Shown here: positions 17,568-60,726 of the stretch, one piece after another | Layout: every line of letters begins with the position of its first letter | Position numbering within the stretch: position 1 is the stretch's first letter | Assembly (NCBI GenBank): GCA_963748625.1 | Contig: CAVVJT010000006.1 | Location: 1-64,000 of the forward strand | Source of the DNA: an uncultured Chloroflexia bacterium | Lineage (GTDB): Bacteria > Chloroflexota > Limnocylindria > Limnocylindrales > CSP1-4 | DNA: 64,000 bases | Reading direction: 5' to 3' | Notes under the pieces: model-generated | What the model saw: only the letters and a program-made list of their open reading frames with translations | The model's database searches: none | Told to the model about the DNA's origin: nothing | Made by a program: the position numbers and the translations under genes

Positions 17568-17580
17568 TTCCCGGTCGGCC

Positions 17581-18189: not shown

Positions 18190-18197
18190 GGGTGACC

Positions 18198-25496: not shown

Positions 25497-26435
25497 ATGC
25501 GCAACCCGCCGCTGCCCTGGCCCTCGCTGGGCCTGAACCTGCCCTACGTCGAGGGGTCGATGGATGGAGCGACGCCCCGCTGGACGGATATCGCGGCGAT
25601 GGCGCGGGCCGCAGAGGACGTCGGGTTCGACGCCGTCTGGGTCTCGGACCACGTGGGGTTCGGCGATCCCGGGACGGGCTGGAGCGGCGCCTGGGAGTCC
25701 TGGACGCTACTCTCCGCGCTCGCCGTGGCGACCGGGCGCGTACGCCTGGGCAGCTACGTGACCGCCATTCCGTACCGCAACCCGGCGCTGCTCGCGAAGA
25801 TGGCCGAGACGCTGGACGAGGTCTCGGGTGGGCGCGTGATCCTCGCCCTCGGGGCCGGCTGGAACGAGCCCGAGTTCGCGGCGTTCGGCTTCCCCTGGGA
25901 GCGGCGCTTCGACCGGTTCGAGGATGGGCTGCGGATCATCACGTCCATGCTCCGGACGGGGCGTGCGGACCACGAGGGACGGGTCGACTCGGCGCGCGGG
26001 GCCCTGGTCCGACCGCGCGGTCCGCGCCCGGACGGCCTGCCCGTGATGGTGGGCGCCGCGGCGCCCCGGATGCTCCGCCTGGCCGCCGAGCTCGCGGACG
26101 AGTGGAACGCAGGGATGCGCACGCCGGCGGGGCTGGCGCCGATGCTGGCCGCGCTCGGGGCCGCCTGCGAGGACGTGGGCCGCGACCCCGCGACGATCCG
26201 CCGCTCGGCCGAGGCCATGGTGGAGATCGGGTCGACGGCCGGCCCGGACGACGAGCTCGACGCGCGCGGCTCCTGGGACGACCCGCTCCGGGGCTCACCG
26301 TCGGAGATCGCCGCGGGGCTGCGCAGGTATCGCGACCTGGGCATCGACCACGTCCAGGTCCAGCTGCGCCCGAACCGGATCGTGAGCGTCCGGGCGTTCG
26401 CCCCGGTGATCGAGGCGCTGCGGGCACTGACCTGA
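25497..26435 (+). CDS. LLM-class (luciferase-like) flavin-dependent oxidoreductase
   Basis: GFDAVWVSDH, RNPALLAKMAETLDEVSGGR, LGAGW, ADEWN. Confidence 0.9.
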   Translation: MRNPPLPWPSLGLNLPYVEGSMDGATPRWTDIAAMARAAEDVGFDAVWVSDHVGFGDPGTGWSGAWESWTLLSALAVATGRVRLGSYVTAIPYRNPALLAKMAETLDEVSGGRVILALGAGWNEPEFAAFGFPWERRFDRFEDGLRIITSMLRTGRADHEGRVDSARGALVRPRGPRPDGLPVMVGAAAPRMLRLAAELADEWNAGMRTPAGLAPMLAALGAACEDVGRDPATIRRSAEAMVEIGSTAGPDDELDARGSWDDPLRGSPSEIAAGLRRYRDLGIDHVQVQLRPNRIVSVRAFAPVIEALRALT

Positions 26436-26480
26436 CCTCCGGTCCGCGATGCTCGGCCGGCGGCGCGGCATACTCGCGCC

Positions 26481-37266: not shown

Positions 37267-37469
37267 TCCGGGCGGGGTCGGTGACGGCGAGGGGCCGCAT
37301 GGGCCGGAGCCGGCGGCGTGGGAGGGGTCCGTCGGCCCCCCGTCGTCCTCGATCCTCGGTCGCTACGGCACGGGCACCGGAGCGCACCCATCGTCGACAA
37401 TCTCGTCAGCGCACTGACGTCGACCGCGTGGAACCCTCCTCCCCCCACCACGCGATCGGCCAGGTACCA

Positions 37470-37501
37470 CAAACGGCGGGCCTGCATGGGCCCGCCGTTT
37501 G
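37470..37501. terminator. Strong hairpin, possible (bidirectional) terminator
   Basis: CAAACGGCGGGCC-tgcatg-GGCCCGCCGTTTG, 13-bp perfect stem. Confidence 0.6.
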
Positions 37502-37527
37502 GCTGTCCGGCGGCTGGGAACGGCGCT

Positions 37528-37564
37528 AGAACATCTGTACGAAAGTGCCGCTCCGACCTATACT
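37528..37564 (+). promoter_or_regulatory. LexA/SOS-type box overlapping the -35 of the lhr promoter
   Basis: aGAAC-ATCT-GTACg (37529-37540), one mismatch to GAAC-N4-GTTC; TATACT -10 at 37559-37564; GTG at 37574. Confidence 0.7.
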
Positions 37565-37573
37565 CGGCGTCCG

Positions 37574-42291
<4,718 letters not shown>

Positions 42292-42295
<4 letters not shown>

Positions 42296-44128: not shown

Positions 44129-45111
44129 GAGCCGAGCTCGCAGGTCAAGTCCACCGGCACCACGATCTCGTGACTCGGCTCGAGGTCGGACACGCGGGGC
44201 CACCCGAGGACGTCGTAGGACACCTGGATCGTGGTGGGTCTGAAGTCGGTACCGGGCGGGGGCGACGCCGGGTCCGCCAGGATCACGCCGCAGGTGTCCG
44301 GTGCCCCGGTCAGCACGATGAACACACGTTGCCGTGGTCCGAGCGTGAGTGGCTCGAACGGCCGGCTTGGGGCCCTGCCCGGGTCCCCCAAGGGGTGGTC
44401 GAGGAGGTTGATCGGATCGTCGACGATGTCCACCCGCTGCCACGGAGCGTCCCCGCCGCTCAGGATGCCGTTGAGACGGATCGGCAGTGGGCCGGAGTTG
44501 GCGATCGAGAAGCCCGTCCTGTACGGCTGTCCGGCCGCGTACACGAGCTGGCGGCCGGTGTACCCGGAGGGCATCTCCGCGCGCACGATGTCGGTCACGT
44601 AGGCACCATCCGATTCGTCGGCTACCGCCGCGGGCAGGAGGGACAGCGCCGCCGCCGCGATCGGGATCGCGAACATCACCGCGAGCACCATCAGCGACGC
44701 ACGACGCCGGCGGCGCAATGCGAGGATGGCGGCGACGGCAAGGCATCCCAACCCGATGAACGCGGCGACCTGGCCGGCTTGGGCGATGTCGGGGTAGTTG
44801 ACGATCCCCGGCCCGAGCGCTGGTGACACGTCCCCGGGAGCCGGTGATGCGCCCACCACTGTGGCGTCGAGCACCGCGCGATTGCCCAGCGCGACGACGA
44901 CGATCACGGCAGCCGCCGCGACCATCACCGTCCCGATAACGCTGGCGGCGATCCGCGCCCGGTCCGCGCCGCGTGGCGCCGTCTCCGGCACGCGGGCCAC
45001 GCCGTCGCGCAGGGCGTAGGGAGCGGTGCCAGGATCGCGGTCGGCGAGGAGGCCGCGGAACTCGCGCTCGAGTCGCGCGTCGGTGGCGTCGGTGATCGGC
45101 TGGTCGCTCAT
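44125..45111 (-). CDS. Membrane protein, probable anti-sigma factor
   Basis: Overlaps the ECF sigma stop; short N-terminal cytoplasmic helix (LEREFRGLL..APYALR) followed by TM segments and a soluble domain. Confidence 0.6.
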   Translation of the reverse strand: MSDQPITDATDARLEREFRGLLADRDPGTAPYALRDGVARVPETAPRGADRARIAASVIGTVMVAAAAVIVVVALGNRAVLDATVVGASPAPGDVSPALGPGIVNYPDIAQAGQVAAFIGLGCLAVAAILALRRRRRASLMVLAVMFAIPIAAAALSLLPAAVADESDGAYVTDIVRAEMPSGYTGRQLVYAAGQPYRTGFSIANSGPLPIRLNGILSGGDAPWQRVDIVDDPINLLDHPLGDPGRAPSRPFEPLTLGPRQRVFIVLTGAPDTCGVILADPASPPPGTDFRPTTIQVSYDVLGWPRVSDLEPSHEIVVPVDLTCELGS

Positions 45112-45674
45112 CGGTCCGCCTCCAGGAGCACGGTGCGGAGCTTTGTCATCGCGTGATGGAGGCGGGACTTGACGGTCCCCTCAGGCACGCCCGCGAGTGT
45201 CGCAACCTGCGGCACCGTGAGATCCCCGTGGAACCGGAGCGTCACCACCAGGCGCTCGTCCGGCGAGAGGGCGTCGAGGGCCCGCGAGAGCGCGTCGCGG
45301 ACAGCGGTCGTTTCGGACGCGTCGGCGACGCGCGGGTGCTCGATCTCGGTCAGGTCCCGGCCGACGTCCACCACCCGGTGGCGGGCTTTCGCGCGAAGGC
45401 GGTCGCGGCAGCCGTTGACGACGATCCGCGCGAACCAGGCGTCGAACGCACCGGGATCGCGTAGCGAGGCGAAGGCCCGCCAGGCTGCGACCGCAGCGTC
45501 GTGGACCGCGTCCTCGGCCTCGACCCGGTCGTTGAGGATCACGGCGGCAAGGCGGTAGGAGGCGTCCAACTGCCGGTCCACGAGGTGCCGGAAGGCGTCC
45601 GCCCGCGCGTCGATGACGCGCAGCGACGCTCCAGCACGCTCCCGGATCGGTTCCCCCACGAGACTCCCCAGCAT
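45108..45674 (-). CDS. ECF sigma-70 family RNA polymerase sigma factor
   Basis: AEDAVHDA, LRDPGAFDAWFARIVVNGCRDRLR, GVPEGTVKSRLHHA; start is approximate. Confidence 0.9.
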   Translation of the reverse strand: MLGSLVGEPIRERAGASLRVIDARADAFRHLVDRQLDASYRLAAVILNDRVEAEDAVHDAAVAAWRAFASLRDPGAFDAWFARIVVNGCRDRLRAKARHRVVDVGRDLTEIEHPRVADASETTAVRDALSRALDALSPDERLVVTLRFHGDLTVPQVATLAGVPEGTVKSRLHHAMTKLRTVLLEADR

Positions 45675-45765
45675 CGTCGCCTGCCTCCGTTCATCGAACC
45701 TGACGAACGGGCGGCACGAATCGTTCACGACTTGGCGAGCGTGCACCAGTGTCAACCGCCTGGCG

Positions 45766-46164
45766 CTACCCGGTCGTTCGAATCTTCCAGAACGAGTCCT
45801 TCGTCACGACCTTGCCATCGCGGAAGACCCACAGATCGCAGCCTCGGACCTCGATTCGCGCTCCCTCGATCGTCGTCCCGGACAGGGTCCACTCGGACGC
45901 CCCGCGGTCGCCGTCGACGAAGTGCTGATCCTGCCGATACCGGATGTCCGGGATACTGGAAAAGCGGGCGGCGAAGGCCTCGCGGATCGCTTCCCGGCCA
46001 ACGAACCGGGTGCCCCACGAGTCCGATCCCCGCGGCCCTTCGAAGACGGCGTTCTCGGCGAAGTGGGCCATGATCGCATCGAGGTCGTGCTCATCGAAGG
46101 CTGTCGCGATGGCCTTGAGCATCCGCATCGCGCCGTCGTGGTCCATGTGGCGCGGCTCGGTCAC
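45766..46164 (-). CDS. SnoaL/NTF2-like protein
   Basis: AFDEHDLDAIMAHFAENAVF, GDRGASEW, GCDLWVFRDGK..KDSFWK; TACCAT -10 lies 6 nt before GTG 46164. Confidence 0.87.
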   Translation of the reverse strand: MTEPRHMDHDGAMRMLKAIATAFDEHDLDAIMAHFAENAVFEGPRGSDSWGTRFVGREAIREAFAARFSSIPDIRYRQDQHFVDGDRGASEWTLSGTTIEGARIEVRGCDLWVFRDGKVVTKDSFWKIRTTG

Positions 46165-46393: not shown

Positions 46394-47752
46394 GTGGACG
46401 ACACCGCGACCGGCGCGATCCCCCTGACCGGCGACGCCACGCCGGAGGTCGACCCGGAGGCGGGGGCCCGTCCCACCGCGCTGTTGCCGATGACGCAGCT
46501 GATGCGGATCTCGGCCTACTGGCTGGGCCTCACCGCCATCGATGCCGCGGTCGGGTTGTTCATCACCAATCGTGTCGAGTTCGACGGCCTGGTGCCCAGG
46601 GACGACGTCGGCAAGTCGCTGTTCATGATCGGCATCGGCGCCGCGATCGTGGGAATCATCATCCAGCCCACCGTCGGCTACATCAGCGACTACACCGTTT
46701 CCAGGTGGGGTCGGCGCAAGCCGTACATCGTCTTCGGGTCCCTGCTGGACGTGGTGTTCCTGATCGGGATCGCCATGGGGAACTCGGTCCTCATGCTCGC
46801 GGCCTTCATGCTGCTGCTCGCCGTCAGCACCAACATCGCGCGCGGTCCATTCCAGGGCTACATCCCGGACCTCGTCGCGGAGCCGCAGGTCGGCATGGCG
46901 AGCGGGATGGTGGGCCTCATGCAGGTGGTCGGGAACGTCACCGGGTTCCTCCTCGTATCGCTGTCCGTCACGCTCGGCGTCATGGAGCTCTCGCTCGTGG
47001 CGGTTGCGATCGTCGAGCTCGTGACCATGGCCAGCGTGGTCCTCAAGGTCGGAAAGGGCATGCCGCCCAAGCCGCGCCACGGCAAGTCCTGGGCACGCAT
47101 CGCACGCGAGGCCTGGGCGACCGACATCCTCCGGGAGCGGTCCTACATCTGGTTGCTGGTGTCCCGGCTCCTGTTCCTGGTCGCCGGCTCGCTCCTCGTC
47201 AACTTCGTGGTCATCTACCTCGGGCGCGCCTTCTTCATGTCCAAGGAGGAGGCGAACTCGATGTACGTCGTCATCCTGATCGTCGTCATCGCCGCCAACG
47301 TGGTGGCGATCCTGCCCGCCTCCCGCCTGTCCGACCGGATCGGGCGCAAGCCGCTGATCTTCGCAGCGTGCGCTGGCGGTGCCGCGGGTGCGGGGATCAT
47401 CGCCCTGACACCGTCCATCCCGATCGCGATGGTCGGCGCCGCGCTGTTCGGCGCCGCGAACGGCAGCTTCCTGGCCGTCGACTGGGCGCTGATGACCGAC
47501 ATCATCCCGCGAGCGTCGGCCGGCCGCTACATGGGCATGAGCAACGTGGCCACCGGTTCGGCCGGGCCTCTCTCCGTCGCCATCGGCGGGGTCGTGCTGG
47601 ACCTCGTGACCTCGGCCGGCAACGAGCCCCTCAGCCCAAGGGTGGTGTTCATTCTCGCCGTCGCGTTCTTCGCGAGCGCAGCGGTCACCCTTCGCCCCGT
47701 CGTCGAGCCGCGCCGCGACCGCCACCCACGGGCGGAGGCCGCAGCCGCCTGA
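46394..47752 (+). CDS. MFS transporter
   Basis: About 12 TM segments; GYISDYTVSRWGRRKPY and SDRIGRK motif A; GGAGG Shine-Dalgarno. Confidence 0.9.
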   Translation: MDDTATGAIPLTGDATPEVDPEAGARPTALLPMTQLMRISAYWLGLTAIDAAVGLFITNRVEFDGLVPRDDVGKSLFMIGIGAAIVGIIIQPTVGYISDYTVSRWGRRKPYIVFGSLLDVVFLIGIAMGNSVLMLAAFMLLLAVSTNIARGPFQGYIPDLVAEPQVGMASGMVGLMQVVGNVTGFLLVSLSVTLGVMELSLVAVAIVELVTMASVVLKVGKGMPPKPRHGKSWARIAREAWATDILRERSYIWLLVSRLLFLVAGSLLVNFVVIYLGRAFFMSKEEANSMYVVILIVVIAANVVAILPASRLSDRIGRKPLIFAACAGGAAGAGIIALTPSIPIAMVGAALFGAANGSFLAVDWALMTDIIPRASAGRYMGMSNVATGSAGPLSVAIGGVVLDLVTSAGNEPLSPRVVFILAVAFFASAAVTLRPVVEPRRDRHPRAEAAAA

Positions 47753-48812: not shown

Positions 48813-49646
48813 ATGCCGCACGGGACAGTCATCGTCATCGGCGGGGCCGAGGACAAGGTCCGCGATCGGGTCATCCTCGGCCAATTCGTCGCGCTCGCGG
48901 GCGGGCCCGAGGCGAGGATCGCCGTGATCGCAACGGCCAGCTCCTTCGGCATGGAGGCGGGCGACCGGTACCGGTCCGTGTTCACCGAGCTGGGTGCTGC
49001 GAACGTGGCGCCGCTCAACGCCGTGAGCCGCGCGCAGGCGAACGACGAGCACGCGGCGCGAATCATCGGCGACTCCACCGGCATCTTCATGACCGGCGGC
49101 AACCAGCTCCGGCTCTCGTCGATGCTGGGCGGGACGCGCCTCGCCGACGCGATCATGGCCCGCTTCATGGCCGGTGCCGTGGTCGCAGGCACCTCCGCCG
49201 GGGCAAGCGCCATCTCGTCGCACATGATCGCGTTCGGGGCGTCGGGCGCCACGCCCAAGCACCGGATGGCCCAGATCGCCGCGGGTCTCGGGTTGCTCCC
49301 GGGCGTCATCGTGGACCAGCACTTCCAGCAGCGGAACCGGCTGGGGCGGCTGCTGTCGCTGATCGCCCAGAACCCGTCGCTGCTGGGCCTCGGCGTGGAC
49401 GAGGACACGGCCGGCGTCGTGGGCCCGGACCAGGTGATGGAGGTCATCGGGCGCGGGTCCATCACCGTGGTGGACGGCGCGGCGTCCGAGACCGACGCCT
49501 GGGAGATCCGCGGCCACCGGCCCCTCATGATCAGCGGGGTGGTGCTGCACAGCCTGCCGGCGGGCTACCGCTTCGACATTCGTCGGCGGACGCGGGTCTC
49601 GGCGCCGGACCTGCAGGTCATCGAGGGCGAGATCGCCTCGAGCTGA
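48813..49646 (+). CDS. cphB: Cyanophycinase (peptidase S51)
   Basis: IIGGAEDK, FMTGGNQLRL, GTSAGA (catalytic Ser), IVDQHFQQRNRLGRL, GVDEDT. Confidence 0.95.
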   Translation: MPHGTVIVIGGAEDKVRDRVILGQFVALAGGPEARIAVIATASSFGMEAGDRYRSVFTELGAANVAPLNAVSRAQANDEHAARIIGDSTGIFMTGGNQLRLSSMLGGTRLADAIMARFMAGAVVAGTSAGASAISSHMIAFGASGATPKHRMAQIAAGLGLLPGVIVDQHFQQRNRLGRLLSLIAQNPSLLGLGVDEDTAGVVGPDQVMEVIGRGSITVVDGAASETDAWEIRGHRPLMISGVVLHSLPAGYRFDIRRRTRVSAPDLQVIEGEIASS

Positions 49647-49749: not shown

Positions 49750-52719
49750 GTGGCGCAGGCGGATCCCGCTTCCCCGAAGCGGCCGAGGAAGACCGCGGCT
49801 CCGGCCGCCGACACGACCGCGGACGGGGGCGCAGCCGCGGCTCCGGCCGCCGCCACCACGCCGGACGCCGGCGCCACGCCGGAGGCGGACCCGGCCACGC
49901 CGCGGCGGAGGGCCTCGGACGCGATCCCGGGCGGCCTGCGTCCCGAGCCCACCCTGCGCATCCTCGAGACCCGCGTCCTGCGCGGCGCCAACTACTGGGC
50001 CAGGGAGCCCGTGATCCGCCAGGTCGTGGATCTGGGCGTGCTCGAGGAGTTCCCGAGCAACACGATCCCTGGTTTCGTCGACGCCCTCGTCGGGTTGCTG
50101 CCAACCCTGGAGGAGCACGCCTGCTCCCTGGGCCGGCGAGGCGGGTTCATCACGCGCCTCCGTGATGGGACCTGGGCGGGCCACGTGGCCGAGCACATCG
50201 CCCTGGAGTTCCAGAACCTCGCCGGCACGGACGTCCGCCACGGCAAGACCCGCGGCACCGGCGAGCATGGTCGCTACAACGTGATCTTCGAGTACCGCGA
50301 GGAGCAGGTCGGCATCGAGGCCGGCCGCAAGGCCGTCGGGCTCGTCAACCACCTCGTGGCGCCCCACGACCCGGCCTTCGACTTCGATCTCATGGCGGAG
50401 CTCGAGAGCCTGATCCTCATGGCGGAGCGGCTCGCCTTCGGGCCCTCCACCCAGGCGCTCATCGACGAGGCCGCGGGCCGCGACATCCCGTACATGCGCC
50501 TCGACCGCTACTCGCTCGTCCAGTTTGGCCAGGGTGTCCACCAGCAGCGAATCCGCGCCACGATGACCAGCCGCACGAGCGGCATCGCGGTGGACATCGC
50601 GTCGGACAAGAAGCTGACCAACCGCCTCCTCGACTCGGCAGGGCTCCCGGTGCCGCGCTCGGAGATGGTGGAGACCGAGGACGAGGCCGTCGCCGCGGCC
50701 CGCCGCCTGGGTTATCCATGCGTCATCAAGCCGCTCGACGGCAACCACGGCAGGGGCGTCGCGCTGGACCTGCTGAACGAGGCCGCCGTCCGCGCCGCCT
50801 GGCCCGAGACGCTGCGCCAGAGCCGCGGCGGCGACGTGATCGTGGAGTCGTACATCACCGGCCGCGACTATCGCTGCCTCGTGATCGGCGGCAAACTCGC
50901 GGCGGTCGCCGAGCGTGTCCCGGCCAGCGTCACCGGCGACGGCGAGCGGACGATCCGCGAGCTGGTCGAGGTCACCAACGCCGACCCGCGCCGGGGCCTC
51001 GGGCACGAGAAGGTCCTCACCCGTATCAGGCTCGATGCCAACGCCGAGGCGGTCCTCGCGGGCCAGGGCTTCGCCCCCGACGACGTGCCGCCCGCCGGCG
51101 CCTTCGTCAAGCTCGCCCTCACGGGCAACATGTCCACCGGCGGCACGTCCATCGACCGCACCCTCGAGGCCCACCCCGACAACGTGGAGATCGCCGAGAC
51201 GGCGGCCCGCGTCGTCGGCCTCGACATCGCCGGCATCGACTTCATCTGCCCGGACATCGAGGAGCCGGTCCGCGAGACCGGCGGCGGCATCGTCGAGGTC
51301 AACGCGGCCCCCGGCTTCCGGATGCACACGCATCCAACCGAGGGTGAGCCCCAGTACGTCGCAAAGCCGGTCATCGATCTCCTGTTCCCGCCCGGCACTC
51401 CGGCCCGCATCCCCATCCTCGCCGTCACCGGGACCAACGGCAAGACGACGACCGTGCGGATGACCGCCCACGTCCTCAAGCTGATGGGCAAGCGCGTGGG
51501 CATGACGTCCACCGACGGCATCGTCATCGACGGCCGGCTGATGAAGCGCGGCGACATGAGCGGGCCGAAATCGGCACAGATGGTCCTCCAGAACCCGACG
51601 GTGGACACGGCGGTGTTCGAGGTGGCCCGCGGCGGCATCCTTCGCGAGGGCCTGGGCTACGACCGCAACGACGTCGCTGTGGTCACCAACGTCACCGGCG
51701 ATCACCTGGGGATCGGCGGCATCGACACGCTCGGCCAGCTGGCCAACGTCAAGGGCGTGGTCGTCGAGGCCGTGCCGCGGGCGGGGACCGCGGTCCTCAA
51801 CGCCGACGACCATCTCGTCTACCGGATGGGACGCCACTGCAGCGGACGCGTAGTGCTGTTCTCGATGTCGAAGGCGAAGGGGGAGGAGGGCTTCGATCGC
51901 GTCGACGGGCACGCCGCGCGTGGCAACGCCGCCTTCTGTCTCGAGGACACGCCCCAGGGCGAGCTCATCGTGCTGCGCCACGGCCCGCGCAAGATGCCGG
52001 TCCTCTACACCCACCTCATTCCCGCCACGTTCGGCGGGCGGGCGCGGATGAACGTCGCCAATGCGCTCGCCGCCGCTGCCGCCGCGTGGTCGATGGGCGC
52101 CCACATCCACGACATCCGCCAGGGCCTGAGGACCTTCTCGACGTCCTTCTTCCAGGCGCCGGGCCGCCTCAACCTGGTGGAGGTCGCGGGGACGCGCGTG
52201 GTCATCGACTACTGCCACAACGTGGACGGCATGCGCCAGCTGGCGGACTTCGTCAACCGGATGATGGTGGAGCCGCAGACGCGGGCGGGCGTGCTGGGAG
52301 CCTCGGCCGCACCGCCGCGAACCGGGCGAGCCATCGGCGTCATCGGGATCCCGGGCGACCGCCGCGACCAGGACCAGCGCGAATACGGCGCCCTGGCCGC
52401 CACCGCGTTCGACGAGCTCGTCATCCGCGAGGACCGCAACCTGCGCGGGCGGCAACCCGGCGAGTCGGCGTCCAACGTCGCCGCGGGGATCCGTGCCGCC
52501 CGCGGCGAGGGCGGTGGCCGGGCCGTGCGGATCGACAAGATCCTTGACGAGGCGTCCGCCGTGCGCGCGGCCCTGCGTCGCTCGGCCCCGGGTGACCTCG
52601 TGGTGGTCTGCGCCGACGATGCAGTGGACGTGTACCGGCAGGCGATGGCACTCGCCGGGCGCAACCAGGGCGGCACCGCCTTCGCCGACCCGGGCGAGCT
52701 GGAGGCTCCGCTGGGATGA
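49750..52719 (+). CDS. cphA: Cyanophycin synthetase CphA1 (N, ATP-grasp and Mur-ligase domains)
   Basis: LRGANYW, EHACS...GHVAEH, GPST, KPLDGNHGRGV, EVNAAPGFRMH, VTGTNGKTTT, EVARGG, PGRLN, DYCHN, GDRRD. Confidence 0.96.
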   Translation: MAQADPASPKRPRKTAAPAADTTADGGAAAAPAAATTPDAGATPEADPATPRRRASDAIPGGLRPEPTLRILETRVLRGANYWAREPVIRQVVDLGVLEEFPSNTIPGFVDALVGLLPTLEEHACSLGRRGGFITRLRDGTWAGHVAEHIALEFQNLAGTDVRHGKTRGTGEHGRYNVIFEYREEQVGIEAGRKAVGLVNHLVAPHDPAFDFDLMAELESLILMAERLAFGPSTQALIDEAAGRDIPYMRLDRYSLVQFGQGVHQQRIRATMTSRTSGIAVDIASDKKLTNRLLDSAGLPVPRSEMVETEDEAVAAARRLGYPCVIKPLDGNHGRGVALDLLNEAAVRAAWPETLRQSRGGDVIVESYITGRDYRCLVIGGKLAAVAERVPASVTGDGERTIRELVEVTNADPRRGLGHEKVLTRIRLDANAEAVLAGQGFAPDDVPPAGAFVKLALTGNMSTGGTSIDRTLEAHPDNVEIAETAARVVGLDIAGIDFICPDIEEPVRETGGGIVEVNAAPGFRMHTHPTEGEPQYVAKPVIDLLFPPGTPARIPILAVTGTNGKTTTVRMTAHVLKLMGKRVGMTSTDGIVIDGRLMKRGDMSGPKSAQMVLQNPTVDTAVFEVARGGILREGLGYDRNDVAVVTNVTGDHLGIGGIDTLGQLANVKGVVVEAVPRAGTAVLNADDHLVYRMGRHCSGRVVLFSMSKAKGEEGFDRVDGHAARGNAAFCLEDTPQGELIVLRHGPRKMPVLYTHLIPATFGGRARMNVANALAAAAAAWSMGAHIHDIRQGLRTFSTSFFQAPGRLNLVEVAGTRVVIDYCHNVDGMRQLADFVNRMMVEPQTRAGVLGASAAPPRTGRAIGVIGIPGDRRDQDQREYGALAATAFDELVIREDRNLRGRQPGESASNVAAGIRAARGEGGGRAVRIDKILDEASAVRAALRRSAPGDLVVVCADDAVDVYRQAMALAGRNQGGTAFADPGELEAPLG

Positions 52720-53006
52720 GCGACGCGGGCGTGCCGTGACGGGCTCCGGTGGGCCGCGGGGCGCGGAGCTCGAGGTCCGCGCACCTGGCGAACCCATACC
52801 CCCGGCCGCGCTGCTCAGGATGGCTCGCGTTGGGTGTATCGGATCCGGGCCACGACGGTGCGGAGGAGCAGTCGACGAGCGACCACATCGGCCGATCGTA
52901 CTGGGCTGATCTGAGCACGAATCGGGGTTGCCGACCCCCACGGGCCGAACGCCGCCGCCTGCCGGGCGCATCATCGTCTCGACAATGCACGGCAGGGTGG
53001 GGAGCC

Positions 53007-53297
53007 ATGGAACGAGACAGCGCACCACGACGGTTCGCGACCCTGGTGCTCGCTGCAGCGGCAATCGGATCTCCACTCGCGGGTTGTGGCACGCCGACGA
53101 CACCGTCGGCTGTGCCGAGCCCTTCCAGCGACCAGCCGGCACCCGCGACCCGGCAGGGGGAAAGCCGGGCCGCGACCGGAGTGTGCGTCACTCAGCCGGA
53201 CGCGAGCAGGGCAGTCGCTCCGGACATGGCATCAACCTCGACGAACCAGTGGCTCGTCACGTCGGCGGTCGTCCCGTCGGCCCTGCCGGACAGGTAG
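53007..53297 (+). pseudogene. Short lipoprotein-like ORF or remnant
   Basis: GGAG-cc-ATG; MERDSAPRRFATLVLAAAAIGSPLAGC (lipobox LAGC) plus a P/S/T linker, then it runs into the antisense strand of the next fragment. Confidence 0.4.
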
Positions 53298-53404
53298 ACC
53301 TGCCAGACGAGCCGCTGCTCGCCGGCCTGGGTGAAGGTGATCGGCAGCTCGGCCGTGTCCCCCTTGACGCCAGTGGCGTCGGTGATGACGGTGGCGCTGC
53401 GGAC
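53192..53404 (-). pseudogene. Orphan 3' gene fragment (PepSY-like end)
   Basis: Coding-like GC3 for VRSATVITDATGVKGDTAELPITFTQAGEQRLVWQVYL...WFVEVDAMSG*, with no plausible start; a repeat cluster lies upstream. Confidence 0.45.
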
Positions 53405-53469
53405 TCGGCGGCAACGCGTGCGACCGCCGGCGTGGGCGGGTCGGCGTACGGCCGGGACACGTTGACGAT

Positions 53470-53617
53470 GGCCGCCCGGCGGCCCATCTGTCGCCCTCTG
53501 GCGGCGAACCGTCCTCTGGGCGGCCAATTGCCGTCGTAGCGGCTGCGAGGGACTGGTCTGGTCGCGCCCAGGGGACCGAGCGTCCGGGTGCGGCGACGAA
53601 CGGTCCGCCCAGCGGAC
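53470..53617. repeat. Cluster of GTCCG-N5-CGGAC palindromic repeats (REP-like), copy A
   Basis: Units at 53470, 53511, about 53562 and 53603; pairs are 41 bp apart and offset by about 92 bp. Confidence 0.6.
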
Positions 53618-53639
53618 CGGGGAGCCCCCGGAGCCCGCC

Positions 53640-55403
53640 CTACTCCCGAACGCGCCCCTGGTCGGTGAGCCTCGGCGCCAGGGCCAGGAGTTCCGTGGCC
53701 ACGTCAACCCCACGCGCCCCCAGGCGCTCGAGCAGCGCGAAGACCTGGTCCCGATCCTGGTGGCAGAACAGCACGACGACCCGCGGCGCGTCGGGGCGCC
53801 CATCGGCGGCGACGCTGCCCGCACCGACCAGCTCCGCATCGAGGGCCATTGCCTCACTCTCGTAGACCGGGACCGTCGCTGGGTCCAGGCCACCCTCCAT
53901 GAGCCCCTCGCCGATGACCCGCACGATCTCCGCGCGATCACGTCCGCGCAGGTAGGCGAGGGTCTCCTTGAGCACGACCCGCTGCGCCCGCTGCGCGGCG
54001 AGGCGCCCGATCCCCCGCAGCGTGTCGTCCGGCCGGTCGCCGGCGGTCCCGATGATGGCGGTCACGGGCGCGACCCCTTCGGCCTCCCCGCCGGCGATCG
54101 CCGACGCGACGTCGAGGATCGCCTCCGTGCCGGCCTCGTTGTGCGCGAAGTCCACGATGATCGTCCGACGGCCGAGGCGGAACAGGTTGAGTCGCCCCGG
54201 CGAGAGGTCTGCAGACGGCCGGAAGTCCAGGAGCCCGGCCGAGACCTGCTCGCGCGTCGCACCCAGCGCCCGTGCCCCGCCGGCCGCCGCCAGCGCGTTC
54301 GCGACGTTGTGCCTCGCCAGGCCGCCCAGCGCGACGGGCAGGTCGGCGACGTCGAGCAGGGCTTGCGCGGCGGCGCCGTCCCATTCGACCAGCCGGCCCC
54401 GATCGAGGACCCAGGCGAGCCCGCCCGCGCGCCGGTGGCGCGCGAGGAGCGGCGAGGAACCCGGGTCCATCGAGAAGTAGGCCACGCGCGCTCGTACCCG
54501 GCGCGCGATGCTCGCCACGAGCGGGTCGTCGGCGTTGAGCACGACGAGTCCGCCGGGCTTCGTCACGCGGCACACCGTCGCCTTGACCTCGGCGAGCTCC
54601 GGGAGCGTGTGGATGCCCTGCAGATCGAGGTGGTCCGCCGAGATGTTGGTGAACACACTCGCCTCGTTGGACTCATAGCCCATGCCCCGCAGGACGAGGC
54701 CGCCGCGCGCCGTCTCCAGGACCGCCACGTCCACGTCGTCCCGGCGCAGGACCGCCGCCGCGCCACCCGGCCCGGTCCAGTCCCCGGCGTCGACCATGCG
54801 CTCGTCCACGAGGATCCCGTCGCTGGTCGTCGTGCCGACGTGGTGCCCGGCCAGCAGCAGGATGTGGGTGATCAGCCGGGTGACGGTCGACTTGCCGTTG
54901 GTCCCGGTGATGGACACGACGGAGATCCGCCGATCGGCGTCGCGGATCCAGGCCGGCGGGGCAGCGCCGGCCTCCGCGATCCGGGCCTCCCAGCTGTCCA
55001 CGAGGCGTTCCTGGGTCATCGTCAGGTGCACGCGACGGGCCGCCGAGACAGACCGGCCGGCGAGGTCCACCGCGGCCTCCGCGAGCAGGCGGGCCCGCTC
55101 GGCGCCCGACCAGGGCCAGGTGATCACCCATCGGCCGGCATCCGACGCCCGGTGGACGACCGCGGGACCCGCATGCTCGCCATGGTCGGCGCGGAGCCGC
55201 CGGGTCCAGGCCACGATATCCGCCACGGGATCCGGCCACTCGCGCATCGGCACCGGACGGGCGAGATGCACGGTGGACCCATCCGAAGGCGTCCGGGATC
55301 CCTTCCAGGTGCGCGTCCGGCCGACGGTGACTTCGACCTTGACCACCGGCAGCAGCCGGTAGACGTTGGGGCCCTCGAGCAGCCGGATCTCCACGAGTCG
55401 CAC
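53640..55403 (-). CDS. CphA-like protein: degenerate N domain plus intact Mur-ligase (M) domains, no ATP-grasp domain
   Basis: MRLVEIRLLEGPNVY resembles the CphA N-terminus; SITGTNGKST, LETARGG, NISADHL, VLNADDP, HNVANALAA, PGRLN, DFAHN, GDRPD; 587 aa versus 989 aa for CphA. Confidence 0.88.
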   Translation of the reverse strand: MRLVEIRLLEGPNVYRLLPVVKVEVTVGRTRTWKGSRTPSDGSTVHLARPVPMREWPDPVADIVAWTRRLRADHGEHAGPAVVHRASDAGRWVITWPWSGAERARLLAEAAVDLAGRSVSAARRVHLTMTQERLVDSWEARIAEAGAAPPAWIRDADRRISVVSITGTNGKSTVTRLITHILLLAGHHVGTTTSDGILVDERMVDAGDWTGPGGAAAVLRRDDVDVAVLETARGGLVLRGMGYESNEASVFTNISADHLDLQGIHTLPELAEVKATVCRVTKPGGLVVLNADDPLVASIARRVRARVAYFSMDPGSSPLLARHRRAGGLAWVLDRGRLVEWDGAAAQALLDVADLPVALGGLARHNVANALAAAGGARALGATREQVSAGLLDFRPSADLSPGRLNLFRLGRRTIIVDFAHNEAGTEAILDVASAIAGGEAEGVAPVTAIIGTAGDRPDDTLRGIGRLAAQRAQRVVLKETLAYLRGRDRAEIVRVIGEGLMEGGLDPATVPVYESEAMALDAELVGAGSVAADGRPDAPRVVVLFCHQDRDQVFALLERLGARGVDVATELLALAPRLTDQGRVRE

Positions 55404-55492
55404 GGTTCGGAAACTCTACGCGAGCGGGCACCGCGGCGACTGCCCGCTCCGGCGCCACGTGGCGCGGGGTCGTGTGCCGATAGACTGGCCGC

Positions 55493-56743
55493 ATGGTTCG
55501 CTCCGACAACGCCCTCGTCGCACCGGAAGAGCTCGCCGCGCTGCGGGCGAGCATCGAGCGGGCCTACCCGGCCTATCTCGCCGACCTCGAACGGCTCGTG
55601 AACACGGACTGCGGCAGCTACACGAAGGCCGGCGTGGACGCCATCGGCCACTGGACCGCGGAGCGGCTCCGGATCCTGGGCTTTGCGGTGACGGCGCACG
55701 AGAACGACGAGGACCTGGGCGAGACGGTCATCGGCGAGCTGCGAGGGACCGACCCTGACGGGCCGACGCTCCTCTGCATCGGCCACATGGACACGGTCTT
55801 CGACCCCGGGACGGTCGAGGAGCGGCCGTTCGCCATCCAGGGGGGCATCGCCACGGGCCCCGGTGTCACGGACATGAAGAGCGGGCTGCTGGCAGGGCTG
55901 CACGCGATCGCCGCCGTGCGCGAGGTCCTGGGCGGCGTCCCGTTCGCGCGCCTGGTGTTCGTCGCCAATCCGGACGAAGAGATCGGGTCGCCGGTGTCCA
56001 CGCCGCACATCCGGCGGCTCGCCCGCGAGGCCGATGCATGCCTGGTCTTCGAGTGCGCGCGCGGGAACGGCGACATCGTGTCGTCGCGGAAGGGGACGCT
56101 GGACCTGGTCGTCACGGTGACCGGGCGGGCGGCCCATGCCGGCGTTGAGCCCGAGAAGGGGCGCAGCGCGGTCCTCGAGGCCGCCCGGATCACGCTGGAC
56201 CTCCACGCGCTCAACGGGCGCTGGGCGGGGGTCACGGTCAACGTCGGGGTCATCGAGGGCGGCACGCGGCCGAACGTTGTCGCGGAGCGATGCTCGCTCG
56301 AGGTGGATGTGCGGGCGGTGACGCGCGAGGGCCTGGAGGGGGTCGAGGCGGCGATCGCCCGCGTCCTCGCGCCGCAGCTCGTGCCGGACGTCACGGTGGA
56401 GTCCGTCCAGACCGGCCGTCACTGGCCGATGGAGAAGCTGGAGCGGTCCTGCAGGCTCGTCGAGCGTGCCGTGAGCCTCGCCGACGAGCTGGGCTTCGAG
56501 CTCCGTGACGCCATGACCGGCGGAGCGTCGGACGCGAACACGACTGCGGGCATGGGCGTGCCCACGCTCGACGGGCTGGGCCCCATCGGCGGGATGGACC
56601 ACTCGCCGCAGGAGTACCTGGAGGTCGCGTCGATCGTTCCCCGGACCACGCTGCTCGCCGCGTTGATCGTGGCCGTCGGGCGCGACCCCGAAGTCCGGCG
56701 CTGGCGGGCCGAACGCCTGGCGAGGACGGGTGTCGCGCGGTGA
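55493..56743 (+). CDS. M20 family metallopeptidase (carboxypeptidase G2-like)
   Basis: GHMDTVF, GPGVTDMKSG, DEEIGS, GRAAHAG, GGASDAN, DGLGPIGG.DHS..E; TAGACT -10 lies 6 nt before the ATG. Confidence 0.92.
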   Translation: MVRSDNALVAPEELAALRASIERAYPAYLADLERLVNTDCGSYTKAGVDAIGHWTAERLRILGFAVTAHENDEDLGETVIGELRGTDPDGPTLLCIGHMDTVFDPGTVEERPFAIQGGIATGPGVTDMKSGLLAGLHAIAAVREVLGGVPFARLVFVANPDEEIGSPVSTPHIRRLAREADACLVFECARGNGDIVSSRKGTLDLVVTVTGRAAHAGVEPEKGRSAVLEAARITLDLHALNGRWAGVTVNVGVIEGGTRPNVVAERCSLEVDVRAVTREGLEGVEAAIARVLAPQLVPDVTVESVQTGRHWPMEKLERSCRLVERAVSLADELGFELRDAMTGGASDANTTAGMGVPTLDGLGPIGGMDHSPQEYLEVASIVPRTTLLAALIVAVGRDPEVRRWRAERLARTGVAR

Positions 56744-57515: not shown

Positions 57516-57848
57516 TCAGCCCAGGCTCAGCATCCGGGCCAGCGCCACGAATGCGACGCCCGCGATCAGCCCCAGGAGCAGGTTCCTGCGCCAGGCGACC
57601 ACGGCCACGCACACTAGCACCCCCAGGATCTCCGGGCCCAGGACGATCGACCGCGCCCCCGCGTCGTCCGTCCGGACGAGGGTCTGGGTTGCCGCGATGG
57701 ACGCCAGGATGGCAGGCCCGACGAGCCGGAGGTAGACAAGGGCACGGGGCGGCAGGCGCTCGATGCCCGGCGCCAGGAGCGGCACGGCCCGGGAGGGGTA
57801 CGTGACAGCTGCCATCAGCAGCGCGAGGAGAACGAGCTCCGTGCTCAA
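57516..57848 (-). CDS. azlD: AzlD-domain branched-chain amino acid exporter small subunit
   Basis: MAAVTYPSRAVP, LVGPAILAS, RRNLLLGL; TTG start overlaps the azlC stop. Confidence 0.85.
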   Translation of the reverse strand: MSTELVLLALLMAAVTYPSRAVPLLAPGIERLPPRALVYLRLVGPAILASIAATQTLVRTDDAGARSIVLGPEILGVLVCVAVVAWRRNLLLGLIAGVAFVALARMLSLG

Positions 57849-58651
57849 GGCGTCCCCCCGGCCGGCAGCTCGTCGACCTCGGCCATCGCCTCGTCAAGGT
57901 CCACGCGCAGGCCCGTGAGGTCCGACTCCGGCGCCACCTGCGAGCCGCCGTCGGGTATCGCCATGCCGATCAGCGGTCCGAGGAGGCCTCCGGCCACGAT
58001 CCCGACGCTCGGCCCGAGGAGCAGCGAGAACAGCACGCCGATCGCCGCGCCCGCCCCCGCGGCGACGATCTCGCGGCGGCCGGTCGCGAGGCCCACCGCC
58101 AGGCCGGCCATCGCGGCCGGGAACACGACGTCGAGCCCGTACGCGGAAGGGTCGACGATCGCGCCGCCCAGCAGCACCCCGGCGAGCGTGGCGAGGTTCC
58201 ACGGGATGAACACGCCCAGGACCGCCCCAATCCAGTAGCCCGGGACGTCCACGCGCCCGATCCGGTGGAAGTGGGTGGCGGCAAGTGCGAACGCCTCGTC
58301 GGTGAGCACGTGGGCCATCGCGGCGCGCTGGAGGAACGGGAGCTGTCGCAGCCGCGGCGCCAGCGATGCGCTGTAGAGCAGGTGGCGGGCGTTCAGGAAG
58401 AACGTGAGCACGAGGATGGGCAGCCAGGGCAGGCCGGCGCTCACGTAGCCCACGGCCGCGAACTGCGCCGCGCCGGAGAAGGCAAACACGCTCATCGCGG
58501 CCGCCTCGATGGTCGAGTAGCCGGCGTCGCGGGCGGCCAGCCCGAACACGAACCCGAACCCGACGGCAGATACGGCGATGCCCGCGGTGTCCAGGAGGAG
58601 GCGGTGGCGCGCGGCCCGCAGCTCGGCGTCGGCCCCGTTAGTGTCGCTCAA
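57845..58651 (-). CDS. azlC: AzlC family branched-chain amino acid exporter
   Basis: FSGAAQF, NARHLLYSASL, LTDEAFA, YGLDVVFPA; TTG start at 58651. Confidence 0.9.
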   Translation of the reverse strand: MSDTNGADAELRAARHRLLLDTAGIAVSAVGFGFVFGLAARDAGYSTIEAAAMSVFAFSGAAQFAAVGYVSAGLPWLPILVLTFFLNARHLLYSASLAPRLRQLPFLQRAAMAHVLTDEAFALAATHFHRIGRVDVPGYWIGAVLGVFIPWNLATLAGVLLGGAIVDPSAYGLDVVFPAAMAGLAVGLATGRREIVAAGAGAAIGVLFSLLLGPSVGIVAGGLLGPLIGMAIPDGGSQVAPESDLTGLRVDLDEAMAEVDELPAGGTP

Positions 58652-58667
58652 GCGGCCCGCCGGGGGA

Positions 58668-58940
58668 CTAGCGCAGGAAGGACTTCGCGCAGGTCCCGTC
58701 GCAGACCGTGAAGACCGCGCGCTTCTCGATGGCGTAGCCCGCGGCATGCAGGAGGCCGGCGCAGCCCGTGGTGGGGCACTTCCACACCCACCATCGGTCG
58801 TTGTGGTCCAGGGGGATGGCCTCGGCCTTGAGCTTGTCGGCGAGACCCTCGCGCCCCCCGATCAGCTCGGCGACACAGGCCGCGCGAACGGCCTCGGTCT
58901 CGCTGGTGTAGGGGTAGTTCTGGCCGACGTTCGAGGTCAC
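58668..58940 (-). CDS. Small putative metal-binding protein (90 aa)
   Basis: GGAGG Shine-Dalgarno with GTG at 58940; WKCPTTGC..LLH...VCDGTC (C-x4-C...C-x3-C); high GC3. Confidence 0.72.
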   Translation of the reverse strand: MTSNVGQNYPYTSETEAVRAACVAELIGGREGLADKLKAEAIPLDHNDRWWVWKCPTTGCAGLLHAAGYAIEKRAVFTVCDGTCAKSFLR

Positions 58941-59061: not shown

Positions 59062-60726
59062 TCATCGAACCGCCGGCAGCCCCGCGCTCCGGGGATCCGT
59101 GGCAGCGGCCAGGGATCCGGCCGCCGCGGGTCCGCCGTCCACCAGCTCGATGGCGTGCTCGTGCCCCAGGCCGCCCTCGTACGAGACGTGCCCGAGTCGG
59201 TGCCCCCGCTCGAGGAGCCCCGCCACCACCCCGTCCCCGAGCTCGCCGTCCGTGAGGACGCGCACGGGCGGCGCGAGCCATCCGTCCGGCTCGACCGTGA
59301 TCCGGGGCGCCGCAACCGCGGTCGCGATGTCCGCCCCGCCGTCCACCAGTGCGGACACGAGCTGGACGTGGATCTGGGGCTGGATGTCGCCGCCCATGGA
59401 CCCGGCAACGACCCACGGGCGCCGTTCTCCTTCGCGGAACAGCATCCCGGGCATGAGGGTATGGGCCGTTCGCTTGCGCGGCTCGAGGACGTTGGGGTGG
59501 GACGGATCCAGCGAGAACGACGCGCCGCGGTTCTGGAAGTGCACGCCTGTCGCCGGGTCCAGGACGCCGGACCCGAAGCCCGCCGCATTCGACTGGATGA
59601 GGCTGACGGCGTTGCCCTCGGCGTCCACGACGCCCAGCCAGATCGTGCCGCCCACGAGGGTGCGAGCCGGGGGCGGTGCCGGGTCGGCGCGTGACGGATC
59701 GACCCGGGCGGCCAGCGCCAAGGCGTGCTCTCGCGAGAGGAGCCGCTCCACCGGGACGTCGCGGAACCCAGGGTCCGTGAGCAGCCGGTCGCGGTCCCCG
59801 AAGGCGAGCTTGGCGGCCTCGAGCTGGAGGTGTGGCCAGGCGGCGTCGGACCAGCCGTGACCGGTGAAGCGGGCGCCCGGCGGGGGCTCGAACTGCTCCA
59901 GGACGTTGAGGATCTCGAGGGCCAGAACGCCGCTGCTGTTGGGCGGGTGCGTCGTGACCCGGACGCCCCGGTACGTGGTGGAGATCGGTGAGCCCCAGGT
60001 GCTGCGGTGCTCCCGCAGGTCGGCCGCGGTGTGCGCGCCGCCGAACGCCCGCAGCCCGGCCGCGATCCGCTCACCCAGGTCACCGTCGTAGCAGGCGTCG
60101 AAGCCGTCGACGGCGAGGGTGCGCAGGGAGGCGGCCAGCGCGGGGAGCCGGATCAGCTCGCCGTGCCGCCACGGGCGCCCCTCGGGCCGCCACACGCTCC
60201 GGAACCCGGCCGTCCACGGCTCCCGGCCCAGGCTCGCCTCCGTCCCCTCCACGGCGTCCACCAGCCCGGCCCACGCCGGGAACCCGGCCGCCGCGTGCTC
60301 GATCGCCGCCGCGAGCACCGCGTCGCGGGACAGGCGGCCCCAGCGGCGATGGGCATCGGCCCAGGAGCGAACCGCGCCCGGGACCGTGATGGCGAGCGGC
60401 CCGCGCAGCGGAATCCGGTCCAGGCCACGGTCGCGCAGCCCGGCGGCGTCCACCCCGGCCGGTGAGCGCCCGGAGCCGTTGAGGGCCACCTGCTCGCCGG
60501 CCGCCTCGTCCCACACCAGCCAGAACGCGTCGCCGCCGATCCCACAACCGTTGGGCATCACCACGCCCAGCACGGCGTTGGTGGCGATGGCGGCGTCCAC
60601 GGCATGCCCGCCGGCCGCAAGCACGGCCAACCCGGCCGCCGTCGCGAGATGATGCGGCGCCACGACGGCACCGCGGGTTCCGCGGACCAGCCGGGCGGGA
60701 ACGAGCGCCACGTCAGGCTCTGGCAT
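59062..60726 (-). CDS. ggt: Gamma-glutamyltransferase family Ntn hydrolase (YwrD/HpxW-like)
   Basis: GGHAVDAAIA, GIGGDAF, TVPGAV, PPNSSG, nucleophile G-T-IWLGVVD, QNRG, HTLMP, GSMGG, DPRS.G. Confidence 0.92.
   Translation of the reverse strand: MPEPDVALVPARLVRGTRGAVVAPHHLATAAGLAVLAAGGHAVDAAIATNAVLGVVMPNGCGIGGDAFWLVWDEAAGEQVALNGSGRSPAGVDAAGLRDRGLDRIPLRGPLAITVPGAVRSWADAHRRWGRLSRDAVLAAAIEHAAAGFPAWAGLVDAVEGTEASLGREPWTAGFRSVWRPEGRPWRHGELIRLPALAASLRTLAVDGFDACYDGDLGERIAAGLRAFGGAHTAADLREHRSTWGSPISTTYRGVRVTTHPPNSSGVLALEILNVLEQFEPPPGARFTGHGWSDAAWPHLQLEAAKLAFGDRDRLLTDPGFRDVPVERLLSREHALALAARVDPSRADPAPPPARTLVGGTIWLGVVDAEGNAVSLIQSNAAGFGSGVLDPATGVHFQNRGASFSLDPSHPNVLEPRKRTAHTLMPGMLFREGERRPWVVAGSMGGDIQPQIHVQLVSALVDGGADIATAVAAPRITVEPDGWLAPPVRVLTDGELGDGVVAGLLERGHRLGHVSYEGGLGHEHAIELVDGGPAAAGSLAAATDPRSAGLPAVR

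Follow-up and report, generated by a model that had tools for sequence, protein, structure and literature searches.

The 64,000-nucleotide stretch analysed here (the window), from contig CAVVJT010000006.1 of an uncultured Chloroflexia bacterium, carries a cyanophycin locus in which a complete cyanophycin synthetase gene, cphA, preceded by the cyanophycinase gene cphB, converges with the gene for a smaller ligase, P0001. The ligase gene in turn is divergent from a gene for an M20 metallopeptidase resembling carboxypeptidase G2 (CPG2) (Table 1). The architecture of P0001 was confirmed as a divergent CphA-type N domain (N') joined to a complete Mur-ligase (M) domain, free of an ATP-grasp (G) domain, and proteins of this kind are called N-M proteins below. 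A first-pass annotation, made from the letters of the DNA, had already read the gene as N plus Mur ligase only, and the Pfam results, the coverage of the CphA1 model TIGR02068 and the AlphaFold and Foldseek results agree with it.

Table 1. Features of the cyanophycin locus and its surroundings in the window.
Feature	Position	Strand	Basis or remark
ECF-type sigma factor	45108-45803	-	
MFS transporter	46394-47752	+	
Cyanophycinase (cphB), upstream of cphA	48813-49646	+	Pfam S51; TIGR02069 256.4 bits (cutoff 126.6)
Complete cphA (CphA1, 989 aa; N, G and M domains)	49750-52719	+	TIGR02068 1125.6 bits (cutoff 850)
N-M ligase gene (P0001, 587 aa)	53640-55403	-	GTG start, stop codon 53640-53642; reading frame, codon bias, dN/dS
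Mlid, Mur-ligase C-terminal domain and tail, about aa 398-587 (R404, H421, GDR 455-457)	53643-54212	-	PF02875
Mcore, ATP-binding Mur-ligase middle domain, about aa 158-397	54213-54932	-	PF08245, 7txv alignment; boundary with Mlid approximate
P-loop TGTNGKS, aa 166-172 (K171 = TeCphA1 Lys499)	54888-54908	-	invariant in 49/49 aligned N-M proteins
N', aa 1-157, CphA-type N domain without the Cx19HxxEH zinc site	54933-55403	-	hhalign, Foldseek
Divergent spacer between ligase and M20 genes, 89 bp	55404-55492		one TAnnnT hexamer 9 nt upstream of the ligase GTG and another 6 nt upstream of the M20 ATG
M20 metallopeptidase, CPG2-like, divergent from the ligase gene	55493-56743	+	PRK06133, CPG2 similarity
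AzlC/AzlD	57516-58747		
Gamma-glutamyltransferase	59062-60726		TIGR00066 338.8 bits (cutoff 357.85, narrowly missed)

The reading frame of the ligase was passed as a real gene by the codon-position filter on guanine-plus-cytosine (GC) content (53640-55415, minus strand; GC1/2/3 0.78/0.52/0.91), and its values resemble those of the other real genes of the window, which has 73% GC overall and 70-76% along its whole length. The GTG at 55403 is the first start codon of the open reading frame, and the relatives start at the same residue. The gene is under purifying selection, as the ratio of nonsynonymous to synonymous substitution rates (dN/dS) against five related loci is 0.16-0.27, with similar constraint on its two parts (0.13-0.26 for N' and 0.17-0.28 for the M domain).

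In regard to the M domain, Pfam matched Mur_ligase_M (PF08245) at residues 165-375 with 78.2 bits (gathering cutoff 24) and Mur_ligase_C (PF02875) at residues 403-522 with 31.7 bits (cutoff 28.4), and with both domains above their gathering scores P0001 belongs to the Mur ligase superfamily. No ATP-grasp model of Pfam was matched by P0001, whereas the adjacent CphA matches eight of them, and residues 158-164 connect N' straight to the P-loop region with no G domain between. TIGR02068 gave 370.3 bits against its cutoff of 850 and covered only model positions 474-835 of 862, so that the whole-protein cutoff for CphA1 was not reached. Among the other NCBIfam models the best was MurE with 104.5 bits (cutoff 373), followed by FolC with 45.7 and PgsB with 25.7 bits, and none of the cutoffs for MurE, MurF, MurC, MurD, FolC, MurT or PgsB was reached. 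A PDB sequence search returned CphA1 chains at 196-255.5 bits over residues of about 470-850 (485-840 in the alignment to CphA1 7txv), while the best MurE-type chain scored 52 bits. With the M domain of the adjacent CphA, P0001 shares 36% identity. By the Pfam, NCBIfam and PDB matches, P0001 clearly has an M domain of CphA type, complete up to its C-terminal lid. The full-length AlphaFold model reached a predicted local distance difference test (pLDDT) value of 91.8 and a predicted template-modelling (pTM) score of 0.92, and in the Foldseek search with this model ranks 1-9 were CphA1 chains, with MurE appearing for the first time at rank 10 (E 5e-20). The best five of these CphA1 matches had E values of about 2e-37 over 610-619 alignment columns and TMq values of 0.54-0.63. 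The first-pass annotation would have given way if the protein had grouped with other ligases of the superfamily, and by the model scores and Foldseek it stands much nearer to the M domains of CphA than to MurE, FolC or PgsB.

Residues 1-157 returned nothing in single-sequence Pfam and NCBIfam searches, and PF18921 gave no match even at E values up to 10. The CphA-like start described in the first-pass annotation is nevertheless real, although weak: BLASTP paired residues 1-39 with residues 69-107 of the adjacent CphA at an E value of 0.032, and an hhalign comparison of 14 N-termini of the family with 17 CphA1 N domains gave a probability of 96% and an E value of 4.8e-9, with columns 1-125 of the family paired with columns 1-140 of CphA1. 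A gap of 17 residues falls in this profile alignment exactly where CphA1 has the Cys and the following loop of the Cx19HxxEH motif, and there is no cysteine at all in residues 1-157, so the zinc site is missing, as had been noticed before. The motif is defined in passages of PMC9262961. Among CphA1s, only the primer-independent ones have the zinc site. An AlphaFold model of residues 1-157 alone (pLDDT 83.8) retrieved CphA1 or CphA2 at all of ranks 1-12 in the Foldseek search of the PDB (TMq 0.46-0.60, the lowest E value being 2.5e-3 and the probability 1.00 at ranks 1-7); beyond these, one more CphA2 chain was found at rank 15, and the other listed matches were unrelated, with probabilities of at most 0.15. 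From the profile comparison and the structure matches of the N'-only model, N' is predicted to be a divergent CphA-type N domain minus the peptidase site. Within the family it has 28 invariant columns among 25 sequences. The N-terminal hairpin (R7, G11, P12, N13, P19) is the sole N-domain element common to all sampled N-M families, and CphA1 proteins start with a similar hairpin. A passage of PMC9262961 says of SuCphA1 that its Y14/I17 loop rests against the M domain and that the Y14 backbone touches cyanophycin.

For the M domain of TeCphA1, section 10 of PMC9427784 names the P-loop residues Lys499 and Thr500, together with Asn497, Thr522, Glu558, Arg731 and His748. Aligned to these, P0001 has K171, S172, N169, the T191-T193 run, E230 (in LETARGG), R404 (in PGRLN) and H421 (in DFAHN). 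Across 49 of 49 aligned N-M proteins there is no variation at G167, T168, N169, K171, E230, D257, H258, R404, D418, H421, N422 and G455-D456-R457. Like CphA1, P0001 has a Mur-ligase-like M domain with P-loop, Mg ligands and Mlid. The M-domain motifs listed in the first-pass annotation can all be read in the translation. Comparison of 42 N-M sequences with 20 CphA1 M domains found 50 positions conserved at 90% or more with the same residue in both sets and few systematic differences. Where CphA1 has Y821, most N-M sequences have Phe, and the Glu-Asp pair that precedes LRGR in the CphA1 lid (E894, 0.90; D895, 0.95; numbering of the window CphA, P0002) is not kept, the Asp being present in 0 of 42 N-M sequences, which have an extra conserved Tyr (Y484) in this part of the lid. 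It would be a guess that this pair contacts the incoming Arg in CphA1. On the other hand, the contrast of ETARGG and DFAHN in P0001 with EVARGG and DYCHN in the adjacent CphA, which had been taken to fit a division of labour, falls within ordinary CphA1 variation, as the CphA1 of Synechocystis reads LETARGG and DYAHN. P0001 retains the residues to which the binding of ATP, Mg and phosphate is assigned in CphA1, and for this reason it is most probably active, as an ATP-dependent ligase working on a carboxylate of cyanophycin type.

Relatives of P0001 are numerous. Among the matches listed by a word-indexed search there were 120 proteins of 556-624 aa with 70-89% identity, carried in databases as 'cyanophycin synthetase' (JGI), 'Mur ligase family protein' or 'hypothetical protein'; the first of these labels is wrong for such N-M relatives. 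When representatives at 50% identity were searched exhaustively, 1,219 matches were obtained at E values up to 1e-30, and among the best 150 of these were many proteins of 527-591 aa with 34-47% identity, some aligned from residue 1 and others from about residue 155 but bearing an N-terminus of their own of 150-190 aa. The relatives were sorted by eye into group A (the family of P0001) and groups B, B2 and C, and the N-termini of all four groups match the CphA1 N-domain profile with probabilities of 91-97.5%. The Atlas neighbours of the N-M relatives belong to Chloroflexota and Actinomycetota clusters. As defined here rather than in a curated resource, an N-M protein has 530-600 aa, an RxLxGPN hairpin at its N-terminus, a P-loop preceded by about 150-190 aa and a place on the N-M side of the M-domain tree, and P0001 has all of these. 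DUF4938 (PF16292, gathering score 32) was not matched by P0001, and out of 40 relatives only P0191 passes it, with 102 bits. Two longer relatives were also seen, P0134 (972 aa), made of two tandem Mur-ligase M+C modules, and P0169 (745 aa), an N-M protein followed by C-terminal tetratricopeptide (TPR) repeats. A length-unrestricted search found no fusion protein in group A; its longer matches were CphA1s, CphA1s with a degenerate G domain, P0134, P0169 and poor gene models.

The M-domain tree was a quick tree of 77 hand-chosen rows (14 of group A, 11 of B, 6 of B2, 18 of C, 18 CphA1 and 10 plasmid-encoded proteins), rooted at the midpoint with no outgroup, and 12 rows had deviant composition. 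It is split into 52 N-M rows and 25 CphA1-type rows, with a support of 99 in the Shimodaira-Hasegawa-like approximate likelihood-ratio test (SH-aLRT) on the bounding branches. The N-M side includes the cphA-adjacent proteins of Shinella, 'Roseateles' and Ruegeria, and the CphA1 side includes a G-deleted protein of Legionella and G-reduced or G-degenerate proteins of Deinococcus. Judged from these sequences, the N-M proteins are an old and widespread lineage apart from the CphA1 M domains. Because the tree puts the two on opposite sides, the ligase gene is not a truncated copy of the adjacent cphA, and the term paralog used in the first-pass annotation has to be replaced by membership in a separate, widespread clade of N-M proteins of 530-600 aa.

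A scan of genomes recovered at least 559 relatives, with the ligase reading frame full-length in most loci, and the locus counts that follow are from the best 80, at 57-89% identity. These loci lie on contigs of metagenome-assembled genomes, nearly all with Chloroflexota titles (L033 and L071 carry other titles). The first-pass annotation had made its proposal depend on linkage of the homologs to cphA, and such linkage was found. A cphA-type match, counted when it had at least 60% identity to the window CphA and lay on the opposite strand downstream of the ligase, is present in 71 of the 80 loci, one of them with a remnant only, and in the other nine the sequence downstream is no longer than 4957 bp. 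Where 9 kb or more is available downstream (53 loci), cphA is always present; the match to its G domain starts within 9 kb in 49 of them and at 9.07-9.46 kb in three, while in the remaining locus (L021) the C-terminal part is found at the end of the locus. The median distance from the ligase to the G-domain match is 1651 bp. In one subclade (L021, L022, L028, L060, L063 and L077) the stretch between ligase and cphA holds a gene of the arginase family, a large Amidohydro_3 gene and an ABC transporter (in L063, for example, at 13143-18740), while L032 has the arginase only and L061 a binding protein only. Such a set of inserted genes would fit arginine or cyanophycin catabolism. Outside this group of loci, a tblastn search with a group C protein found exactly four plasmid records with a full-length N-M match, from Shinella, 'Roseateles' and two Ruegeria, and in all four the N-M gene directly follows cyanophycinase and cphA (by annotation for Shinella, 'Roseateles' and Ruegeria THAF33, and by coordinates for Ruegeria AD91A). 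N-M ligase genes are thus linked to cphA and cphB in two phyla.

The M20 gene, which the first-pass annotation had left out, is the closest conserved neighbour of the ligase gene. It lies upstream on the opposite strand in all 73 loci with at least 1.5 kb of upstream sequence, within 400 bp in 66 of them, and is a tighter partner of the ligase than cphA. CPG2 takes the C-terminal amino acid off an N-acyl amino acid. The M20 protein of the window scores 289 bits with PRK06133, below the cutoff of 349, and its closest match is CPG2 (1cg2, 155 bits), which makes it a plausible hydrolase of an N-acyl amino-acid bond, for example that of beta-Asp-Arg. Genes of the IadA, IaaA or CphZ type were not found in the 64-kb window, and according to passages of PMC9974463 more than a quarter of the cyanophycin producers are without IadA/IaaA and other hydrolases can cluster with these genes.

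In the spacer between the ligase and M20 genes, the TAnnnT hexamers are kept on both sides in eight of eight aligned loci, as TAGAGT (5/8), TATCCT (2/8) or TAGCAT (1/8) on the ligase side and as TAGACT (6/8) or TAGATT (2/8) on the M20 side. They would fit leaderless transcripts from back-to-back promoters; the scan for sigma-70 promoters and terminators gave no site around the ligase gene, and Rfam had no match there. The spacer also holds an inverted repeat, GAGCGGGCA-N10-TGCCCGCTC (55422-55449), of which only part is kept even in the nearest relatives. The 920-bp gap between cphA and the ligase (52720-53639) had no Rfam match and no terminator-like site and, by blastn or tblastn, is not conserved in any of the 80 related loci; it contains a possible small lipoprotein reading frame (53007-53297, plus strand; lipobox LAGC) with a weak coding signal (GC3 0.75). 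Past the M20 gene the order is AzlD/AzlC, gamma-glutamyltransferase (GGT), a second MFS transporter and DegV, and in the related loci GGT and AzlC/AzlD stay in synteny with the ligase-M20 pair to the same extent as cphA. The adjacent CphA matches the Cyanophycin_syn N domain and both Mur domains and has Cx19HxxEH and all M-domain motifs intact. With the GTG at 49750 taken as its start, it would have an Ala/Pro/Thr-rich extension of about 68 aa before the N-domain hairpin LRILETRVLRGANYW (49750-49950). Elsewhere in the window, Ku and a LigD of three domains (for non-homologous end joining) and a helicase of Lhr type with 1625 aa, at 24445-29216 and 37418-42295, are ordinary and unrelated.

Among known systems, CphA1 (TIGR02068; PDB 7LG5, 7WAC) is the best sequence and structure match of P0001 by a wide margin, and the two have in common the N-domain fold, as predicted for P0001, and the type of M domain with its ATP-, Mg- and phosphate-binding residues. 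Unlike CphA1, P0001 has neither the G domain nor Cx19HxxEH, belongs to a separate clade of the M-domain tree and is without the Glu-Asp pair of the lid; having no ATP-grasp G domain, it cannot extend the poly-Asp backbone. CphA2 (PDB 8FXI, 7TA5) is likewise a reduced relative of CphA with a non-catalytic N domain, and is among the structural matches of N'. However, as the first-pass annotation rightly stated, it is the opposite reduction, since passages of PMC10273328 and PMC9427784 describe an active G domain with a truncated, inactive M domain that has no P-loop or Mlid; P0001 has no active G domain and its M domain is not truncated. MurE, MurC/D/F, FolC, MurT and PgsB are of the same superfamily, with the same acyl-phosphate, ADP-forming chemistry and three-domain layout, in which the N-terminal domain binds the substrate, but the N-terminal domain of P0001 is predicted to be of CphA type and not UDP-binding. 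The alphaproteobacterial 'Mur ligase family proteins' encoded after cphA and the DUF4938 proteins agree with P0001 in N-M architecture and in length (578-601 aa), stand on the N-M side of the tree and are linked to cphB-cphA, yet these are only 29-37% identical to P0001, are co-directional with cphA instead of convergent and have no M20 neighbour. Proteins without a G domain have also arisen from CphA1 itself. A Legionella adelaidensis plasmid (L083, 7317-9203) encodes a 628-aa G-less CphA1 derivative beside cyanophycinase and isoaspartyl peptidase, with no full-length cphA within the 8-kb flanks; a Deinococcus deserti plasmid (L081, 7026-9200) encodes a 724-aa derivative with no recognisable ATP-grasp, and in Deinococcus sp. 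KNUC1210 a split CphA1-derived copy follows cphA-iaaA-cphB. The Legionella and D. deserti derivatives have the canonical PF18921 N domain, and the Legionella protein keeps Cx19HxxEH; since the tree has these derivatives among the CphA1-type rows, they are taken as recent deletions that arose independently and do not belong to the N-M clade.

Taken together, we lean moderately towards the explanation that P0001 is a stand-alone, competent ADP-forming ligase that acts as an accessory in trans in cyanophycin metabolism, most likely making an isopeptide bond on a cyanophycin-type acceptor. In the N-M module of CphA1, as described in passages of PMC9427784 and PMC9262961, the C-terminus of cyanophycin is held with the N domain on one side and Mcore on the other, the free beta-carboxylate of its last Asp is phosphorylated and Arg is ligated. 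By analogy with those CphA1 structures (same passages), N' of P0001 would pack against the complete M domain (Mcore and Mlid), a carboxylate acceptor, likely a beta-aspartyl peptide or a polymer end, would bind between N' and Mcore and be phosphorylated by ATP at the P-loop site, and the amine of an amino acid held by the lid would attack the acyl-phosphate to give the isopeptide. The possible roles in trans on the same polymer would include arginylation, repair or the addition of a different residue, and the hydrolase that goes with it may be the CPG2-like M20 peptidase encoded next to it. The enzyme activity, the cyanophycin-derived acceptor and the role of M20 are all inferred. A more specific form of this explanation, which we hold only as a doubtful extension, makes the N-M protein a second writer in trans that would put a non-Arg residue on Asp side chains, or a further residue on the free alpha-carboxylate of the side-chain Arg, to be removed by M20 before cyanophycinase acts. 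It would have as a corollary that the N-M module may be the ancestral enzyme, which became CphA1 when an ATP-grasp domain was inserted.

Several observations speak against a trans-acting accessory ligase in cyanophycin metabolism. The M-domain motifs of the CphA of Shinella, like those of the window CphA, are intact, so a second M activity is not needed for ordinary cyanophycin, and there is no dead M domain for which the extra ligase would stand in. As all 80 loci are of one lineage, their synteny could be inherited and is by itself weak evidence of function, and the independent support for linkage comes from only four proteobacterial plasmids, in three of which, according to the annotation, the M20 neighbour is absent. 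Furthermore, in one locus (L010) cphB and cphA are gone and a 72-aa C-terminal remnant of cphA (6395-6610, 75% identity) directly follows a ligase that, like M20, looks intact; the ligase-M20 pair can therefore persist, at least for a while, with no adjacent cphA. That locus also favours the alternative that P0001 is a primer or dipeptide synthetase, which would couple Arg, or some other amino acid, with free Asp or with a beta-aspartyl peptide of very few residues to give beta-Asp-X; this product would prime CphA1 or serve as a soluble pool of nitrogen or osmolyte, with M20 hydrolysing the same bond. We regard this as a minority possibility that deserves some weight. M20, the tightest conserved neighbour, resembles CPG2, and the first ligation steps of CphA1 are, in passages of PMC9262961, very slow, with primers limiting synthesis. 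However, the adjacent CphA keeps its primer-generating Cx19HxxEH site and therefore should not need primers from outside, and the retained polymer-contacting N' domain and N-M interface loop are not obviously needed for a small substrate.

With about the same weight it is also conceivable that the ligase is unrelated to cyanophycin and works on another carboxylate together with M20 and possibly GGT, its place beside cphA being inherited synteny. The equal synteny of M20, AzlCD, GGT, DegV and cphA in the 80 loci points this way, as do the variable distance to cphA (about 1.3 to 9.5 kb) with genes inserted between, the convergent orientation, which leaves no co-transcription, and the presence of N-M relatives in Actinomycetota clusters. 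Against it stand the occurrence of a different N-M subfamily in the cphB-cphA operon of all four proteobacterial plasmids, the 50 conserved positions that the M domain has in common with CphA1 with very few differences, and the arginase-family insert of one subclade, which fits arginine or cyanophycin metabolism. We consider it improbable that P0001 is a non-catalytic partner with vestigial chemistry, one that would bind CphA1 or the polymer and serve as scaffold, as regulator of chain length or as granule protein. The CphA1 N domain does bind cyanophycin through charged patches (a passage of PMC9262961), and the retention of an inactive CphA domain has a precedent in CphA2 (PMC10273328), but every ATP-, Mg- and phosphate-binding residue checked in P0001 is kept and invariant across 49 N-M proteins, while the vestigial M domain of CphA2 has lost P-loop and Mlid and CphA1 tetramers form by contacts of the G domain that P0001 does not have (both from passages of PMC9427784). 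Least probable by far is a decaying remnant, a truncated cphA duplicate on its way to being lost. G-less or G-degenerate derivatives of CphA1 do arise, as in L. adelaidensis, D. deserti and Deinococcus sp. KNUC1210, yet the constraint on the gene, the number of relatives with a full-length frame, the different clade and the low identity to the CphA M domain all disagree with decay. A pseudogene or a recent truncation of the adjacent cphA was likewise rejected on the dN/dS values and the M-domain tree.

The N-M ligases are a large family for which no published study was found in the searched literature, and the earlier statement that no enzyme of this architecture has been characterised agrees with that search. 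A G-less CphA relative, a 'CphA3' in this sense, or a 'Mur ligase family protein' in connection with cyanophycin was not found in the searched full texts, and an earlier mention elsewhere is possible. For DUF4938 the searched literature held no functional study and a mention only in unrelated work, and in the bioinformatic survey PMC10206079 no relevant passage was found on the terms looked up.

Cyanophycin synthesis has been described as the work of a single enzyme, either CphA1 or, for the recycling of dipeptides, CphA2. If a second active ligase indeed stands beside cphA in at least two phyla, this would point to an unrecognised step, such as priming, repair, capping or side-chain diversification, or to a new product, and would bear on how cells control the composition and solubility of the polymer and on the making of tailored cyanophycins. 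Lys, Orn, citrulline and Glu are reported as alternative residues of cyanophycin (PMC8050183) and currently come only from the promiscuity of CphA1, whereas an N-M writer acting in trans, if real, would give a natural branched or mixed polymer. Likewise, the CPG2-like M20 protein is a candidate for the still-missing beta-Asp-Arg dipeptidase of lineages without IadA, IaaA and CphZ. The ligase gene of the window also offers a testable entry point to a large enzyme family.

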